Virus genome (UHGV): UHGV-0076257
DNA from: a virus
Reading direction: 5' to 3' (one strand)
Length of the DNA stretch: 33,099 nucleotides
In this document: one piece after another, positions 2,623 through 33,099 of the stretch
Numbering within the stretch: the stretch's first letter is position 1
How the letters are laid out: every line of letters begins with the position of its first letter
The notes under the pieces: generated by a model
Seen by the model: the letters and a program-made list of their open reading frames with translations, nothing else
Databases searched by the model: none
Told to the model about the DNA's origin: nothing
Translations under genes and position numbers: made by a program

Positions 2623-2930
2623 GCTGCTTCTCCATAAATGTGTCTGCGTTTGAATATTGCGAAGGCATATTCAGCCTTAACTCTTTCGGTTATTGCATCC
2701 CAGAACCATTCAGCGGCTTTTTCCTGATAGTTACAATCATCATCTTCCAGCCAGTCGATAGCGTCCTTAGTGTGTTCATCTGGTTTATATGAGCGAAGCA
2801 TTTCGCTTATTGGGTCGCAACGTTTGCAGAGGCGAACAACTTCACTGTTGATTCGCTCGTAATCTTCATCAGTAAAACTTGCGATTATTTGCGATATTTC
2901 ACGCTTATCATTCAGAGTCAGAATCATCAT
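2619..2930 (-). CDS. Hypothetical acidic protein (103 aa) in the Gam/Abc position upstream of recT
   Basis: Complete ORF whose stop overlaps the recT start (ATGA); acidic, Trp-rich. Position matches where lambda gam and P22 abc/arf lie; the function is inferred from position only. Confidence 0.5.
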   Translation of the reverse strand: MMILTLNDKREISQIIASFTDEDYERINSEVVRLCKRCDPISEMLRSYKPDEHTKDAIDWLEDDDCNYQEKAAEWFWDAITERVKAEYAFAIFKRRHIYGEAA

Positions 2931-3015
2931 CTTTCTCCTGTTCTTTGTGCTGATTGAGCATTTTGTTCATCTGACGAATGAATTCTTCGTCTGACCAGTT
3001 ATCTGTAAAACTCAT
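2908..3015 (-). CDS. Possible very small ORF (35 aa)
   Basis: Hand translation MSFTDNWSDEEFIRQMNKMLNQHKEQEKDDDSDSE; its start overlaps the kil stop (ATGA) and its end overlaps the next gene's start. Could be a real coupled micro-ORF or chance. Confidence 0.25.
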   Translation of the reverse strand: MSFTDNWSDEEFIRQMNKMLNQHKEQEKDDDSDSE

Positions 3016-3164
3016 TTCCTGCGATACCACGGAAGGTTGATAGCTGATTTCATCGCTTTATTTGCTTCAAGCCACATTTTTGAATCACCAATAAATCTGG
3101 CTATTACTGCTTTGTTCTGTGCAGCACGAAGCATCTGGTGATTAATGGCTATTTCATTGCGCAT
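3012..3164 (-). CDS. kil: Kil-like host-killing / cell-division inhibitor (50 aa)
   Basis: Hand translation MRNEIAINHQMLRAAQNKAVIARFIGDSKMWLEANKAMKSAINLPWYRRK; the IARFIGDSKMWLEA core resembles lambda Kil (IATFIGDEKMFREA); lies directly downstream of cIII as in lambda. Confidence 0.65.
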   Translation of the reverse strand: MRNEIAINHQMLRAAQNKAVIARFIGDSKMWLEANKAMKSAINLPWYRRK

Positions 3165-3274
3165 AATAAGACCTCAACTCTTTTCCATCCGTCACGTAAT
3201 TTACTGGTGATTCGTTCAAGTAAAGATTCGGAAGGGCAGCCAGCAACAGGCCACCCTGCAATGGCATATTGCAT
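3149..3274 (-). CDS. cIII: CIII-like protein (FtsH inhibitor, stabilises CII)
   Basis: The internal Met of track ORF 3149..3376 gives MQYAIAGWPVAGCPSESLLERITSKLRDGWKR..., matching the lambda CIII N-terminus; AAGGAG ribosome-binding site 6 nt upstream of this ATG. Confidence 0.75.
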   Translation of the reverse strand: MQYAIAGWPVAGCPSESLLERITSKLRDGWKRVEVLLCAMK

Positions 3275-3303
3275 GGTGTGCTCCTTATTTATACATAACG
3301 AAA

Positions 3304-3323
3304 AACGCCTCGAGTGAAGCGTT
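3304..3323 (-). terminator. Intrinsic terminator-like hairpin upstream of cIII (tL-type)
   Basis: Minus strand reads AACGCTTCACTCGAGGCGTT followed by TTTT; 7-bp stem including one G-U pair. Confidence 0.45.
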
Positions 3324-3335
3324 ATTGGTATGCAT

Positions 3336-3361
3336 ATAAAAAGGCCCTCACACTGGAGGGC
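3336..3361 (-). terminator. Intrinsic terminator (tL-type)
   Basis: Minus strand GCCCTC-CAGTGT-GAGGGC hairpin followed by CTTTTTAT. Confidence 0.55.
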
Positions 3362-3480
3362 AAAGAAGATTTCCAATAATCAGAACAAGTCGGCTCCTGT
3401 TTAGTTACGAGCGACATTGCTCCGTGTATTCACTCGTTGGAATGAATACACAGTGCAGTGTTTATTCTGTTGTTAGTGCC

Positions 3481-3505
3481 AAAAATAAAGGCCGACTATG
3501 CGGCC
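3481..3505 (-). terminator. Intrinsic terminator at the 3' end of the 207-aa gene
   Basis: Minus strand GGCCGCATAGTCGGCC hairpin overlapping the stop codon, followed by TTTATTTTT. Confidence 0.5.
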
Positions 3506-4119
3506 TCGGAAGGAAGTCCAATCATCTTATTCAAATCTTCTACCCGTAAAGCAGGAAGTGCTGTACTTGCTTTATCTGCTTCTTTTGGTAGCAATTCTTT
3601 GCTTTCAGGCCAAACTTCAATAAGTCGCTTAACTGTTGTGACTGAGTTCAAAGCAGCCCATACATTTGATTCGATATCCTTTTTCTTGGCTTCAAGTTTT
3701 TGTTGCAATGCGCAGATTTCATCAAACCTTTTTGTTATTTCGTGTTCTGCGCTAAACATGCATTTATCTTTGGTCGGAGTAGGGAGCAATATATCTTCGC
3801 CGTTGCCGTCTTTCCCATATGAATGCCATCCAACCCTTCTGCCAGATACAGTCAGATAAATTGAAGTAGAACTAACATCGTATGAGTAAAATGAACATCC
3901 CATCTTTTCAAGTTCTTCACTTATAGCTACCAACTTGGATGATAACTGATCCACTTCCTCAGTTTTCTTTTTACCGCCAAACGCAATAACTCTGGCGTCA
4001 AGTGCAAGCTGGTTCTTTAACTTTGTTACTTCTTCAAGTTCAGTGAAAACCCCAGACTTAATTAAAGCGTTACGAGCGATTTCCTCTTTCATTCTCGTAG
4101 TTAAGCGGATTGATGACAT
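3496..4119 (-). CDS. Unrecognised 207-aa protein in the N-cIII accessory slot
   Basis: Track ORF 3496..4179 trimmed to the Met at 4119 (MSSIRLTTRMKEEIARNAL...), which has a GAGG ribosome-binding site and avoids overlap with N. Coiled-coil-like N-terminus; no family recognised. Confidence 0.6.
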   Translation of the reverse strand: MSSIRLTTRMKEEIARNALIKSGVFTELEEVTKLKNQLALDARVIAFGGKKKTEEVDQLSSKLVAISEELEKMGCSFYSYDVSSTSIYLTVSGRRVGWHSYGKDGNGEDILLPTPTKDKCMFSAEHEITKRFDEICALQQKLEAKKKDIESNVWAALNSVTTVKRLIEVWPESKELLPKEADKASTALPALRVEDLNKMIGLPSEAA

Positions 4120-4130
4120 ATTAATTCCTC

Positions 4131-4430
4131 TCAAATAAGTGGTTTGCTGCCTAATTTTATTTTCTGGCGACCAACACAAGTCACACCCATTTCACTGCGT
4201 GGCTTGCGGTAGTAAATACGGTTCTGTTTATGCTCGACTTCTTCTGCTTTCTTACAGCGAAGGCTTCCGAGTGATGCTGCTTTATCTGCTCTGACGCAAC
4301 CAGAGAGCTTTAGCGCAATTTTTCGCGCCAGTCGCTGCTCTTGCATTGCCTGTTCACGTTGAGCCTGTCTGCGTGCTCTGCGGCGATTTCTGGCGTTATC
4401 GTCAGCCAGATATGTAATGACTACTGTCAT
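4131..4430 (-). CDS. N: Antitermination protein N (lambda-N-like)
   Basis: N-terminal arginine-rich motif (DNARNRRRARRQAQREQ) and C-terminus YYRKPRSEMGVTCVGRQKIKLGSKPLI resembling lambda N (...WYSKPGERGITCSGRQKIKGKSIPLI); first gene downstream of PL/nutL. Confidence 0.85.
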   Translation of the reverse strand: MTVVITYLADDNARNRRRARRQAQREQAMQEQRLARKIALKLSGCVRADKAASLGSLRCKKAEEVEHKQNRIYYRKPRSEMGVTCVGRQKIKLGSKPLI

Positions 4431-4537
4431 GTTGACCTCCGATGATTGACTTTGGCGGTGACGCGCCGGGTGCTTATCTTCCAGTTGCCGTCGTGCAGCT
4501 GCACTTCACGTCACCCCAAAGCCAACTACTCTTTGGT

Positions 4538-4579
4538 TCCCGCATTTCGGCGGGACAATCCCATCAATGTTAAAGAGCC
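4538..4579 (-). promoter_or_regulatory. nutL site (boxA plus boxB hairpin)
   Basis: Minus strand reads GGCTCTTTAACA (boxA-like) then TCCCGCCGAAATGCGGGA (6-bp stem hairpin) between PL and N; the same boxA/boxB pair recurs on the plus strand after cro. Confidence 0.7.
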
Positions 4580-4624
4580 TGCCAATCTGTTCCGTTTGGC
4601 TACCAGCGTCCTGCTGATGGCTTA

Positions 4625-4708
4625 AATTTAAGATCTCTTTAATTAATGGTCAAGAGTATTTTTGAAGAAAACTTAAATTTTCTTTCGTAACTTAAGTTTG
4701 GCTTTGAT
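4625..4708 (-). promoter_or_regulatory. PL promoter with OL operator sites
   Basis: Minus-strand -35 TTGACC (plus 4648-4653) and -10 TAAATT (plus 4625-4630) with 17-bp spacer; operator-like ATTTAAGATCTCTTTAAT at 4626-4643 and weaker related sites at 4671-4708. Confidence 0.5.
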
Positions 4709-4721
4709 TTTTAAAGGAAAT

Positions 4722-4747
4722 AAAAAAAAGGGGCGAATGCCCCCCTT
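4722..4747 (-). terminator. Intrinsic terminator immediately after the repressor gene
   Basis: Minus strand GGGGGC-ATTC-GCCCC hairpin followed by TTTTTTTT, abutting the c2 stop codon. Confidence 0.6.
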
Positions 4748-5396
4748 ATGGAAGGTTTGCTAGTTTTGCATCGACAACTACGCCGATGATTTTGCAGTTT
4801 CCGTTGATCTCGATCATCGGATATTGTGGGTTAAGTGGTTTTAGAAACTTCCTGCCTGCATCAATAACTAACTTCTTGAAAGTTGCCTCGTTTTCTCCTT
4901 CGAGCTTTGCAACTACCAGTTTCCCGTTACGCGGCTCTACTTCAGGATCGACGAGTATTATCATTCCTTCAGGGATACTGAGACCGGCCGGAGCCGTCAT
5001 TGAGTCTCCCTTCACGTCCAACCAAAACGAATCTTCTGAACAGTCTACGGTTGTATCGTACCAGTTATCTATTGCACGCTTATGATATGGTTCTACAGCT
5101 TCCATCCAGCATCCTGCGCTCACCCAGCTAATCAGAGGGTATGACCCTCTTGGATCATGCCTACTGTGATAGGCAATGTTTGAAAGACTTTCCTCTCCTT
5201 TCATCAGATAGTCAGGGGAACACTTCAACGCATTAGCCAGGGCGAGAAGATTCTCTCCATTTGGCTCTGTCTCAGAGCGTTCCCACTGAGATATGGCAAC
5301 ATTAGACACGCCGACCATCTTTCCAAGTGCGGCCTGCCTGATCTTGAGTTCTTTTCTCCGAGCGCGAATGCGCTCTCCCATCAATTGAGTTTTCAT
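4746..5396 (-). CDS. c2: Prophage repressor, P22 C2 type (LexA-like autocleaving repressor)
   Basis: 216-aa ORF MKTQLMGERIRARRKELKIRQAALGKMVGVSNVAISQWERSE... is, as far as I recall, nearly identical to P22 C2; HTH N-domain plus S24-peptidase-type C-domain (GDSM...K). Confidence 0.93.
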   Translation of the reverse strand: MKTQLMGERIRARRKELKIRQAALGKMVGVSNVAISQWERSETEPNGENLLALANALKCSPDYLMKGEESLSNIAYHSRHDPRGSYPLISWVSAGCWMEAVEPYHKRAIDNWYDTTVDCSEDSFWLDVKGDSMTAPAGLSIPEGMIILVDPEVEPRNGKLVVAKLEGENEATFKKLVIDAGRKFLKPLNPQYPMIEINGNCKIIGVVVDAKLANLP

Positions 5397-28766: not shown

Positions 28767-29156
28767 CTAACATTTTCTTTTTACTTTTCCAACAAAAGCT
28801 TTGGTTGAATCCATATTTCCATAACCGGAAATGGTTTTTGACATTAAAACTGTTCCAGTAGGATGTATTACCCATGAGTCGATAACGCGTTGAGTTTCGC
28901 CATTCGCGCCGATTCCTATGATGGAGTTTTTAGACAATGCTTTGTAAGCCATGCCGCCCGCATCTGTCCCAGAATATGTGATGCTGGCATCTTCACCGCT
29001 TGTCTTAATGATGAATGTTCCACTAAAACCATCTTCTTCCGGATGGAAATTATTTCGTTCTGAATAGCTTATTCCGCGCATATCTCCAACGACCCAGCAC
29101 TCTGCTGTAGCCCCAAAAGATATGAATAAGAACATAGCAGCAAGAAATTGCTTCAC
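28767..29156 (-). CDS. Secreted protein with N-terminal signal peptide (129 aa), probable moron
   Basis: Track ORF 28767..29372 trimmed to the GTG at 29156, which lies 3 nt after AAGGAGG; MKQFLAAMFLFISFGATA-EC... is a Sec-type signal peptide; Gly/Ser/Thr-rich mature part. Confidence 0.5.
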   Translation of the reverse strand: MKQFLAAMFLFISFGATAECWVVGDMRGISYSERNNFHPEEDGFSGTFIIKTSGEDASITYSGTDAGGMAYKALSKNSIIGIGANGETQRVIDSWVIHPTGTVLMSKTISGYGNMDSTKAFVGKVKRKC

Positions 29157-29186
29157 ACCAACCTCCTTAGTTTTGCGCAGGATACC

Positions 29187-29552
29187 ATGAAAAAAGTTAA
29201 CATTGGAAACGTACCAAAGATGCTCGTTCCGCTCTTTGAGAGCGGTACAATTGTGTTTTGTAGAGACTTTCCAGAATGGCAACGCCTGCATCAAAAACTT
29301 GGTGTGGACGTGCAGGACTCGGATGCCAACGGAGCGTCTCATACAATGAGCAGCGAGAATGGTGTTTTGCATGTGATAGGCGTGTTCAATGGCAAACTAT
29401 CTACTATTGCCCATGAGTGCGCTCACATGGCATTCGATATCTGCTCAAGGGTAGGTGTTGATGTTGAACCAGGAAGAGCCAACGAGACTTACTGCTACTT
29501 AATGAGCAGGCTTGTTGAGTTCTGCGAGCGACATATCAAAAAGCCGGAGTGA
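29187..29552 (+). CDS. Small HExxH-motif protein (putative zincin-like), 121 aa
   Basis: Track ORF 29148..29552 trimmed to the ATG at 29187, which follows AGGA; contains TIAHECAHMAFD (HExxH). No family confidently recognised. Confidence 0.45.
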   Translation: MKKVNIGNVPKMLVPLFESGTIVFCRDFPEWQRLHQKLGVDVQDSDANGASHTMSSENGVLHVIGVFNGKLSTIAHECAHMAFDICSRVGVDVEPGRANETYCYLMSRLVEFCERHIKKPE

Positions 29553-29833: not shown

Positions 29834-29856
29834 AACCCACCGTCAGGTGGGTTTTT
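29834..29856. terminator. Bidirectional terminator-like hairpin at the 3' end of the mnt-like gene
   Basis: AACCCACC-GTCA-GGTGGGTT flanked by an A-run on one side and TTTTTTG on the other; overlaps the last codons of the minus-strand RHH gene. Confidence 0.5.
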
Positions 29857-30217
29857 TGTTGTCATCACCAAGATATTTCTGCTTATATTCCTCTGAAAGA
29901 GGAATTGATCTTTCAACCATGCTAATAAGTTTATCTACTTGTTTTTTCTGTTTTTCTATGATTTCTAAAAGTTGAGGTATAAGTTTTTCATGCTCGATTT
30001 TATCATATTTTCTGTTTATCGCATCTAGTTGTTCTTTAAACTGCTGAACGATAGGACCATCCTCCGGCCCAAAATCACGACAAACACGAATCGCCAACTC
30101 AAGCAGAGTGACAATCTCAGCATTCATAGAACGATTATTTTGTTTTGATGACGCTTCAATTATTTTTTTTAATTCAACAGGAAGCCTAATCCGAAGTTGA
30201 GGGTCTTCTCTACTCAT
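29843..30217 (-). CDS. Ribbon-helix-helix repressor, Mnt/Arc family, with C-terminal extension (124 aa)
   Basis: N-terminal LRIRLPVELKKIIEASSKQNNRSMNAEIVTLLE fits the RHH beta-strand plus helix pattern (compare P22 Mnt ...NGRSMNSELL...); divergent from the arc/ant operon. Confidence 0.65.
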   Translation of the reverse strand: MSREDPQLRIRLPVELKKIIEASSKQNNRSMNAEIVTLLELAIRVCRDFGPEDGPIVQQFKEQLDAINRKYDKIEHEKLIPQLLEIIEKQKKQVDKLISMVERSIPLSEEYKQKYLGDDNKKPT

Positions 30218-31208: not shown

Positions 31209-31296
31209 TTGGTGCGCCGGACGGCGCAAAAAGAAAACCGCCAGTGTGCTGCTGGCGGCCTATGTCACACCCTTACTACCACATAAGGAATGCCTA

Positions 31297-32025
31297 ATGA
31301 CTTTTAAGAATGTAGCAAACATCGGATCCGTTGTCACGGATAAAACCATTGACAGCCAGCGCCTGCTTGAGATGGTAAATCAGGCTCGTAGACAGTGCGG
31401 TGAGCCGGAGGTTCGTAATAACAAATTCATCGAGAAAATTGAAGATGAATTGGATGGAGAGCACTACACAAAAAGTGTAGTGCAAAAAGCGAACAAAACT
31501 TCGATGGTTATCATTGAGATGTCAATCAAGCAAGCATTGCGAGTTGCCGCTCGCGAGTCAAAAGCCGTTCGCCGCTCACTGGTAGACCAACTTGAAAGTA
31601 TGCAAGAAGCGCACATTAAAAGCGGTAAATCAGCGAGTGGACTTGTTGAGTATCGTCAAGCGCGAACATTGAAAATGACGGTTGAAGCTGTTACCAATCT
31701 GTTCGATCTGATGCCAAATCTTGCGCCTGAGGCAAAGCAGACAGCGGCAGCAAGTATAATCAACCCGCTTGTTGGTTTTAATGCAATACCTCTTCCGGCA
31801 ATAGAAGAGCATTACTACTCAGCAGGGGAGGTTGCAGAGCAGCTTGGAGTAACGGCCAACAAGATTGGTCGCATTGCTAACGCAAACAACCTCAAAACTG
31901 AGCAGTACGGGAAGTTCTTCCTGGATAAATCGGCGCATTCCAGCAAACAGGTAGAGGCGTTCCGTTACAATTCTGAAGGCGTTAAAGCACTACAACACCT
32001 GCTACATGGCTCAAATGTGGCGTAA
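31297..32025 (+). CDS. Hypothetical protein in the ant operon (possible antirepressor C-terminal-type module), 242 aa
   Basis: Track ORF 31246..32025 trimmed to the ATG at 31297, which follows AAGGAA; co-oriented with ant and followed by a terminator; family not confidently recognised. Confidence 0.5.
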   Translation: MTFKNVANIGSVVTDKTIDSQRLLEMVNQARRQCGEPEVRNNKFIEKIEDELDGEHYTKSVVQKANKTSMVIIEMSIKQALRVAARESKAVRRSLVDQLESMQEAHIKSGKSASGLVEYRQARTLKMTVEAVTNLFDLMPNLAPEAKQTAAASIINPLVGFNAIPLPAIEEHYYSAGEVAEQLGVTANKIGRIANANNLKTEQYGKFFLDKSAHSSKQVEAFRYNSEGVKALQHLLHGSNVA

Positions 32026-32043
32026 CATTTTATAATGAAAACT

Positions 32044-32068
32044 AAACCCGCTTAATCGCGGGTTTTTT
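32044..32068. terminator. Bidirectional intrinsic terminator between the ant operon and the second RHH gene
   Basis: AAACCCGC-TTAAT-CGCGGGTTT hairpin followed by TTTTCT; overlaps the stop of the minus-strand gene. Confidence 0.55.
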
Positions 32069-32309
32069 CTTTCCTTAGAATTTCAGCCGCAACTTCTTTT
32101 ACTCGTTCCGAGATTAATGAGGCCAGCCTCTCTTCTTCATCACGATACCCGCTTACAGGTGATGGTTTGGAGAGTGATTCTTCCATCGTAGCCACAATTT
32201 CGGAATTGATAGACCTGTTATTCATTTTTGCACGCTGCTTAATCTTAGCGTGCAACTCGTGTGTAAGCCTCAAGTGGAACTGCGCCTCATCGTATTTGCT
32301 GTACATCAT
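32052..32309 (-). CDS. mnt: Mnt-type RHH repressor (85 aa)
   Basis: Track ORF 32052..32705 trimmed to the internal Met (MMYSKYDEAQFHLRLTHELHAKIKQRAKMNNRSINSEIVATMEESLSKPSPVSGYRDEEERLA...), which closely resembles P22 Mnt (...NGRSMNSELLQIVQDALSKPSPVTGYRNDAERLA...). Confidence 0.72.
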   Translation of the reverse strand: MMYSKYDEAQFHLRLTHELHAKIKQRAKMNNRSINSEIVATMEESLSKPSPVSGYRDEEERLASLISERVKEVAAEILRKEKTRD

Positions 32310-32441
32310 CAATGCCTCACCAAATGGGTGGAATGGCATCGTAAAACCTACTGTACAAATCAACAATCGTACCGTTTCGGTATGTAATAAATGCCAACCG
32401 TAGCCATGCTGCGGCGATTCCTTGTATCTGGAGCAAATTAA

Positions 32442-33099
32442 ATGACAGACATTACAGCCAATGTTGTAGTAAGTATGCCTTCGCAACTCTTCACTATGGC
32501 TCGTTCTTTTAAAGCCGTAGCCAATGGCAAAATTTATATCGGTAAAATTGACACTGACCCTGTAAATCCTGAAAACCAGATTCAGGTTTATGTAGAGAAC
32601 GAAGACGGTTCTCACATTCCTGTTTCGCAACCAATAATCATTAACGCTGCTGGATATCCGGTATATAACGGACAGATTGCCAAATTCGTAACCGTGCAAG
32701 GCCATTCTATGGCTGTTTATGATGCGTATGGTACACAGCAGTTCTATTTTCCTAATGTGCTGAAGTATGATCCTGATCAGTTACGGCAGCAATTAGAAGA
32801 CCCAGATGGAGCGAATAAATACCCAAAACTTCAGATAGCAAGATGGAGAGACAGTTATGATGTAAGAGGTTGGGGGGCTATTGGTGATGGTGTTCATGAT
32901 GATACATCAGCTCTATCAGAATTACTTTCTGTTGCAACAGGTGGTGAAAAGATAGATGGGCGAGGGCTTACTTTTAAAGTATCAACTCTTCCAGATGTCA
33001 GTCGATTTAAAAATGCTCGTTTTTTATTTGAGAGAATACCGGGCCAGCCTCTTTTTTATGCTTCTGAAGATTTTATCCAGGGAGAGTTATTTAAAATTA
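32442..33099 (+). CDS. Tailspike protein, 5' partial (P22 gp9-type head-binding domain fused to a different receptor-binding domain)
   Basis: [43 protein letters not shown]... matches the conserved P22-like tailspike N-terminal domain up to ...NVLKYDPDQ; what follows ([15 protein letters not shown]) looks like a pectate-lyase-type beta-helix start. Runs off the window end. Confidence 0.85.

Follow-up and report, generated by a model that had tools for sequence, protein, structure and literature searches.

The virus genome UHGV-0076257, a stretch of 33,099 nucleotides referred to here over its whole length as the window, carries on its minus strand an open reading frame (ORF) at 3496-4119, directly behind a gene for an N-type antiterminator. 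An earlier description made from the sequence alone had called the 207-residue product unrecognised and without a motif. It is a full-length protein of the Nmad5 family ('nucleotide modification associated domain 5', PF18757); the family and this exact protein are already catalogued, and the gene is ordinary and extremely common. Our tentative preference is to regard the protein as an immediate-early, non-enzymatic binding protein tied to the intermediates of phage DNA replication or recombination. A link to DNA metabolism is argued mainly from the recurrence of genes for single-stranded DNA-binding proteins (SSB), polymerases and recombinases next to the gene in unrelated gene orders. The gene is dispensable and exchanged as a cassette. 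The window belongs to a P22-like (Lederbergvirus) coliphage or prophage, the nearest records being Escherichia phage Gally, vB_EcoP-611R6, Kapi1, HK620, CUS-3 and Sf6.

Identity and anatomy of the gene

The protein (23.1 kDa, isoelectric point [pI] 6.2) matched PF18757 with an E-value of 1.2e-71 and 241.5 bits against a cut-off of 27, whereby residues 4-203 covered positions 1-206 of the 206-position profile. Its sole PHROG match was phrog_1965 (E 5.9e-84), which bears the label 'unknown function'. Proteins 95-100% identical to it in NCBI and UniRef are named 'Nmad5 family putative nucleotide modification protein', and the name stands in thousands of RefSeq genomes. The window protein is like the other members of Pfam PF18757, PHROG 1965 and RefSeq Nmad5 in length, in predicted fold (members in BFVD) and in the C-terminal signature WPE..EL.P...LN..IGLP; databases hold proteins 97-100% identical to it, and no structural difference from the family was seen. 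Unlike the members that gave the family its name, the window copy has no neighbouring nucleotide-modification genes. Scans of the protein with PADLOC and NCBIfam returned no matches. No literature was found on phrog_1965, IPR040835 or PF18757; the papers on the Kapi1 phage-inducible chromosomal island and transcriptome contained nothing specific to Kapi1_018, and a preprint on an accessory-gene screen does not mention the gene. Three leads from the literature proved to be other proteins: the 'NMAD' domain of DefensePredictor is Nmad2, the Avs2 trigger of SECphi18, Ksap1, has 74 aa and is encoded at another place in the genome, and RAZR is triggered by the portal protein and Gp77.

At the DNA level, 2252 of 5426 complete E. 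coli genomes (about 40%) contain the gene (at least 95% identity), in up to six places per genome, and it is also found in mEp235, HK542, HK244, Kapi1, PhiR12 and many Stx1- and Stx2-converting phages. Among 1.84 billion representative sequences, a profile search recovered 2305 relatives at E<=1e-3, nearly all of them single-domain proteins of about 200 aa (185-235). In Stx2a-converting phages (e.g., LC616058), the match covers residues 34-207 (95% identity) and is found in two places per record, which points to a variant N-terminus or to a second, incomplete copy.

The anatomy of the gene and its coordinates were as the sequence-only reading had given them. The uninterrupted 207-codon ORF runs from ATG at 4119-4117 to TAG at 3498-3496, with a GAGG ribosome-binding site at 4127-4130, 7 nt upstream of the ATG, read from the sequence; exactly 11 nt separate the ATG from the stop codon (TGA, 4133-4131) of the N-like ORF (4430-4131). 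The hairpin with its T-run at the stop codon and two further hairpins before cIII, all noticed in that reading, were likewise recovered. A mechanical ORF list gives a longer version from TTG at 4179 (227 aa) that overlaps N, and we prefer the ATG at 4119, given the ribosome-binding site and the MSS or MTS with which the homologues begin. The ORF is intact in 76 of 80 close loci and its pN/pS (the ratio of non-synonymous to synonymous polymorphism) is 0.32 over 62 alleles, which marks it as a genuine gene subject to moderate purifying selection.

A consensus scan found no terminator-like site on the minus strand between the pL-like promoter (4625-4653) and a hairpin at 3507-3488, and no promoter-like site from pL to the end of the Nmad5 gene. 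This layout suggests that the gene should share one immediate-early transcript with N and be repressed in the lysogen.

Neighbours, structure and proposed role

The context of the gene was surveyed in 76 diverse IMG/VR loci, 25-45% identical to each other. Around 40 of them have the order phrog_6784, a DUF2800 PD-(D/E)XK nuclease, an Enc34-type (T7 gp2.5-like) SSB, Nmad5, a variable reverse ORF and the A-family polymerase PolA. Four or five further loci read repressor, Nmad5, phrog_6784, DUF2800 and SSB, which shows that Nmad5 goes along with the nuclease/SSB group and not with the polymerase. The neighbours are different again in one lineage with Nmad5, DUF7173, AAA_24 (Sak4-type), DUF669 and a helicase, in an arrangement of Nmad5, ParB-HTH and a helicase, and in lambdoid Ead/Ea22 contexts, where Nmad5 is followed by a small ORF and a DinI-like gene, at most two genes downstream. 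Vibrio phage Athena1 has Nmad5 directly upstream of replication protein O, and Yuavirus PAE1 has it upstream of thymidylate synthase (TS) and PolA. N4-like phages carry PolA, another gene, ThyX/TS, Nmad5 and, further on, AAA_24, while in Vibrio phage douglas 12A4 the gene is flanked by an RNase_T exonuclease and a DnaD_N-like gene. The window does not have the nuclease-SSB-Nmad5-PolA order; a DnaB-type helicase and an O-like initiator are found there, and no PolA or Enc34 SSB. Klebsiella and Serratia prophages lack N and have homologues of 42-58% identity in first place behind the repressor. A role as an N-specific partner was rejected, since these prophages and non-lambdoid phages have the family without N.

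In the PolA-type prophages (L133-L147 and L177), the reverse-strand ORF between Nmad5 and PolA forms a variable hotspot. Its occupants include an 89-aa membrane protein and a 229-aa protein without a Pfam or PHROG match, and they look like moron or defence insertions.

An AlphaFold2 model built with 23 homologues (mean predicted local distance difference test score 85, predicted template-modelling [TM] score 0.70) consists of three helices (8-72), a beta-hairpin at 86-100, a long helix at 127-158 and four short C-terminal helices, with a low-confidence linker at 184-191. The coiled-coil-like N-terminus noted from the sequence alone is consistent with the predicted helices 8-22, 24-47 and 50-72. 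The structure search proposed with that reading gave no relative outside the family: Foldseek against the PDB returned nothing at E<=1e-3, and the BFVD search returned family members only, the best Nmad5 matches reaching TM 0.75 and E 4.6e-13. When PDB sequences were searched, neither the single protein nor a 45-sequence profile brought up anything beyond coiled-coil noise (E >= 0.28). No clear homology to a characterised housekeeping protein, the result named beforehand as contradicting a defence-related role, came from the homology and structure searches.

The residues conserved across the family are R5, L6, I14, A18, K21, G23, R43, G48, G49, G93, V153, T162, L166, W170, P171, E172, E175, L176, P178, L188, P189, L196, N197, G201, L202 and P203. 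They include the signature T..L...WPE..EL.P ... LP......LN...GLP together with the N-terminal R5/K21/R43/G48, all present in the window protein and conserved at 80-100% across the family in a 148-sequence alignment and also in the 45-sequence alignment. These positions look like packing and binding positions rather than a catalytic set. The sequence is highly charged and has no long hydrophobic stretch, and the pI of 6.2 means that the protein is not an acidic DNA mimic. Its tail, L-x-x-L-x-V-x-D-L-N-x-x-I-G-L-P, may resemble the first helix of a SAP/HeH motif, which is a lead at most; the protein ends there.

The only relevant experiment found concerns escape from the Tmn system in the Dhillonviruses SM_S22 and SMA8, where a single nmad5 substitution, K296E in SM_S22 and K216E in SMA8, confers escape and its reversion restores sensitivity (PMC11846954). 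The nmad5 deletion was viable and gave no escape, and the gene could not be cloned, toxicity being the apparent reason (PMC11846954). The Dhillonvirus protein (SM_S22 CDS6) belongs to the same family (E 1.2e-55 to PF18757) and is 31% identical to the window protein over the C-terminal 100 residues. It differs in coming from a virulent siphovirus, in being encoded on the opposite strand within the head-gene module rather than in an early operon, and in being longer as annotated. K296 of SM_S22 aligns with R165 of the window protein, within the conserved stretch T-x-K-[KR]-L-x-x-W-P-E. For this homologue, the results therefore mean that the gene is dispensable, that the C-terminal module is a functional surface, and that escape is a change rather than a loss of function; they do not show that wild-type Nmad5 is a trigger or an inhibitor.

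The annotated 334-aa coding sequence of SM_S22 (3796-4800) overlaps a scaffolding gene on the opposite strand by about 200 nt, and its Pfam domain begins at residue 81. The Tmn study gives a length for the SMA8 homologue that is shorter by 80 residues (PMC11846954). The true start in SM_S22 is probably near residue 80.

The role tentatively favoured here, that of a binding protein in DNA metabolism, could work as follows. When pL fires upon infection or induction, N and the Nmad5 gene would be co-transcribed before the first terminator, without need of antitermination, as the sequence layout suggests. The predicted 23-kDa product would be an elongated helical bundle with a beta-hairpin, whose small C-terminal helical module is predicted to hold nearly all invariant residues (T162, L166, W170-P171-E172, E175-L176, P178, L196-N197 and G201-L202-P203). 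As neither a catalytic-looking residue set nor an enzyme-like fold was recognised, the protein would most likely act by binding. Phages that encode an A-family polymerase of their own and lambdoid phages that rely on the host replisome both contain the family; a partner common to both types is thus suggested by synteny, either single-stranded or SSB-coated DNA intermediates or a conserved host DNA-processing protein. Its binding may channel or shield early phage DNA transactions. The conserved C-terminal module would be the functional surface through which the outcome of host immunity is altered, as shown for the Dhillonvirus homologue at the residue equivalent to R165.

Several observations weigh against this role. 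The Enc34-type SSB is found in 1295 phage records and Nmad5 in 379, and Jersey-like phages have the SSB mostly without Nmad5; the idea that Nmad5 is a core part of the SSB/PolA module was rejected on these counts, as it is optional there. Dhillonviruses have the gene by itself within the head module, on the opposite strand, and its viable deletion marks it as dispensable there (PMC11846954). On a marine phage contig (75 kb, L259/L260), the gene immediately upstream of Nmad5, at 4451-4933, encodes a Pfam Tad2-like protein (Thoeris anti-defence 2), and in the window Nmad5 occupies a slot common to anti-restriction genes. Moreover, in many phages the early operons consist mostly of replication genes, so adjacency to them may be positional rather than functional.

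Cassette behaviour and competing explanations

The boundaries of the mobile unit were examined in 80 IMG/VR loci with an Nmad5 copy at least 95% identical. Their homology to the window is lost at 4140-4220 next to N and at around 3460, 3340 or 3260 on the other flank, 17 loci breaking at around 3460, which coincides with the 'boundary sequence 4' of HK542. Breakpoints at both flanks indicate that the unit that moves is the ORF with its terminator. In a complementary survey, 80 loci were fetched by the N protein alone (at least 96% identical), 56 of which had enough downstream DNA. Nmad5 was present in 8 of these 56 loci sharing the N allele. Other genes starting the slot after N were phrog_1636 (28 of 72 loci), Ral (phrog_1055), phrog_2471 and the membrane protein phrog_3054, with Ea10-like (phrog_646) and phrog_1376 proteins deeper in the slot. 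The order N-Ral-Nmad5 was found in 2 loci, and in Kapi1 the gene downstream of Nmad5, Kapi1_017, is phrog_14587, an 'anti-restriction protein'. The breakpoints, the occupancy of 8 in 56, the alternative occupants and the GC content of 40% in the gene versus 47% in the whole window support what had been proposed from the sequence, namely that this is an accessory slot and that the gene was acquired as a cassette. The commonest gene right after N, phrog_1636, encodes a 156-aa protein of unknown function, occurs sometimes together with Nmad5, and is another immediate-early candidate.

Ral, the phrog_14587 anti-restriction protein and Ea10 are likewise encoded in this variable stretch behind N on the pL transcript, and Ral can adjoin Nmad5. 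A different explanation, the anti-defence role already suggested from the sequence alone, is that Nmad5 is a dedicated counter-defence or host-takeover protein, an immediate-early inhibitor of a host immune system or sensor, and its neighbours elsewhere are incidental. Production before the first terminator is what would be expected of a protein needed at once, and the shared slot, the cassette-like breakpoints and low GC content, the Tad2-like neighbour, and the hotspot of variable reverse-strand ORFs next to Nmad5 in the PolA prophages all point the same way. So does the Dhillonvirus homologue, dispensable and toxic, which one substitution enables to defeat Tmn (PMC11846954). Against this, the wild-type homologue does not block Tmn (PMC11846954). 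PHROG, PADLOC, BFVD and Foldseek-PDB searches gave no homology or structural match to known anti-restriction, exclusion or anti-defence proteins, and the pI also speaks against a DNA mimic of the acidic type. Ral (66 aa) and the phrog_14587 proteins belong to different PHROGs and have no sequence similarity to Nmad5, their position after N being the sole link. Polymerase, SSB and TS genes as recurrent neighbours in at least four unrelated phage lineages also speak against it, and an inhibitor that evolves fast would not usually keep its signature so strongly conserved over about 2300 clusters (50% identity). Overall, this explanation is a reasonable conjecture, though rather unlikely. The two readings overlap if the protein hides intermediates from host sensors or nucleases. 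In its broadest form, equally doubtful, Nmad5 would be a large, hitherto unrecognised family of immediate-early counter-defence factors that shield replication or recombination intermediates from immune sensors such as the membrane KAP-NTPase Tmn, with the C-terminal module as the interaction surface; if true, such a surface would explain how a single charge reversal switches Tmn sensitivity.

The location in a pL operon with RecT/Erf-type recombinases, the exonuclease and SSB pairs that adjoin Nmad5 elsewhere and the elongated, helical shape predicted by the model, as in Gam, would also fit an inhibitor of RecBCD or of another exonuclease, functionally analogous to lambda Gam or P22 Abc2. The Sipho_Gp157/Gam-type proteins are, like Nmad5, helical, about 160-200 aa long and encoded beside recombinase or SSB genes. 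Gp157 is often found upstream of AAA_24/Sak4, a place that Nmad5 holds in one lineage. However, there is no detectable homology between them, profile comparison with hhalign giving a probability of 0.2% against lambda Gam and 0.2% against the window's own Sipho_Gp157; the window has both Nmad5 and Gp157. Moreover, Abc2, Gp157 with RecT, or Gam was present in all 56 same-N loci with or without Nmad5 (Abc2 in 5 of the 8 loci with Nmad5 and in 37 of the 48 without), and mEp235 has Nmad5 and Abc2 together. On the profile probabilities and the presence of an inhibitor regardless of Nmad5, a substitute for the RecBCD inhibitor was rejected, and an inhibitor of RecBCD or of another exonuclease is very improbable. 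The 48 same-N loci without Nmad5 (within L179-L256) divide into 37 with Abc2 and 11 with RecT and Sipho_Gp157, and no locus has both. The pattern agrees with Gp157 being the functional counterpart of Abc2, modulating RecBCD, in modules of the RecT type; its PHROG label, 'Mu Gam-like end protection', points to this as well.

The family and RefSeq product names imply a component of a nucleotide or DNA base-modification pathway. In M6-like phages (SN1), Nmad5 is listed in the thymidine-hypermodification cassette beside aGPT-Pplase and a kinase, and TS-type genes lie close by in PAE1 and the N4-like phages. The authors of the Tmn study call Nmad5 'a DNA modification enzyme' (PMC11846954). In the 33-kb window, however, the scanned ORFs (NinB, NinX, YbcO, RusA, Q, KilA-N and Arc-type regulators besides the early genes) include no TS, hydroxymethylase, kinase, aGPT-Pplase or other modification gene, and the relatives of the window are ordinary P22-like phages. 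The enzyme label reportedly goes back to the computational paper of Iyer et al. from 2013 that defined the family, and not to an assay. Most family members, such as those of Klebsiella and Serratia and of most IMG/VR contexts, are not near such genes, and the modelled helical fold has no enzyme-like residue set. The enzyme table of the M6 hypermodification paper comprises gp51-gp54, and the paper nowhere uses the term 'Nmad' (PMC8989533). The name is explained by the M6/SN1-type hypermodification genes sitting in the same replication cluster; it rests on the gene neighbourhood in a few hypermodifying phages and is probably a misnomer. Judged from its surroundings in this phage, the protein is unlikely to be a nucleotide-modifying enzyme, and a part in any such pathway is very improbable.

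In lambda and P22, exclusion genes occupy the interval between N and cIII, and Kapi1_018 is not listed among the genes undetected in RNA sequencing of the Kapi1 lysogen; yet a prophage-expressed superinfection exclusion or defence factor of the SieB or P22 gene 17 type, one of the two roles suggested from the sequence alone, hardly comes into consideration, as the gene starts 11 nt after N with no promoter-like site of its own and should be repressed with pL, PADLOC found no match, the highly charged sequence offers no membrane segment, and family members are frequent in virulent phages (Dhillonvirus, N4-like, Yuavirus).

Early-left region, other features and implications

The minus strand of the early-left region has the order cI terminator, pL-like promoter, putative nutL, N, Nmad5, a hairpin with a T-run, a folded spacer, two hairpins, the cIII thermoregulator with cIII, kil, an ORF of unknown function, RecT and Sipho_Gp157. 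Upstream of pL lies the cI terminator (4747-4726). The pL-like sigma-70 promoter consists of TTGACC and TAAATT separated by 17 nt, and its place agrees with the pL annotated in HK542. A putative nutL at 4539-4578 comprises a boxA-like GCTCTTTAAC (4578-4569) and a boxB-like hairpin, CCCGC-CGAAAT-GCGGG (4554-4539); Nut boxA and boxB are annotated at the equivalent site upstream of N in mEp235 and HK542. The gene at 4131-4430 encodes the 99-aa N-type antiterminator (phrog_271, E 3.9e-36), annotated as N in mEp235, HK542 and HK620, with a Pfam N_peptide match below threshold.

The first terminator-like hairpin with a T-run after pL (3479-3507, tL1-like) holds the Nmad5 stop codon in its loop, and the consensus scan scored its site at 3507-3488 as 7 pairs followed by TATTTTTGG. 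Two further terminator-like hairpins from the same scan, at 3361-3344 and 3323-3304, precede cIII. There are 8 terminator-like sites within 2900-5000, against 2.2 +/- 1.4 in shuffled sequences. Singly, the three hairpins are modest in energy (-11.0, -10.7 and -10.3 kcal/mol) and z-score (-1.5, -1.2 and -2.8), and they are, therefore, consensus-level calls of terminators.

Between the Nmad5 terminator and the next hairpins, the spacer at 3380-3470 is strongly structured (fold -37.1 kcal/mol, z -6.95) around a perfect 14-bp stem with the arms GTGTATTCATTC and GAGTGAATACAC. Its 5' arm GCACTGTGTATTC is the 'boundary sequence 4' annotated in HK542 (EF120458). Since many loci break homology at around 3460 or 3340, the spacer may be a recombination linker or an RNA processing site. 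An Rfam scan of the region matched the cIII thermoregulator alone, leaving the spacer without a match.

The cIII mRNA thermoregulator lies at 3229-3287 (RF01804, 88.5 bits, E 1.6e-20) and the 41-aa cIII gene at 3149-3274 (Pfam Lambda_CIII, E 4e-20). The mechanical ORF list gives cIII as a 75-aa TTG-started ORF at 3149-3376 on the same strand, spanning the terminator-like hairpins; on the strength of the Rfam and Pfam matches, the true start is at 3274. The 50-aa kil gene follows at 3012-3164 (Pfam Lambda_Kil, E 1.7e-20; phrog_2055), also on the minus strand. At the other end of the window, two proteins of the Arc/Mnt ribbon-helix-helix type are encoded at 32052-32705 and 29843-30217 (minus strand), one of them unusually long with 217 aa and its Arc domain at residues 140-185. 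A 201-aa ORF (28767-29372) and a 259-aa ORF (31246-32025) there have no Pfam match; this is probably the immI/late accessory region.

The Nmad5 gene is among the commonest genes of E. coli prophages, and its predicted co-production with N before the first terminator together with the recurring SSB, polymerase and recombinase neighbours makes it a cheap and well-defined target for functional work. If the counter-defence explanation in its broad form were true, the 'nucleotide modification' label carried by about 40% of complete E. coli genomes would be a misnomer. Proof of a counter-defence function, or of a new accessory role in replication, would call for corrections to thousands of genome annotations.

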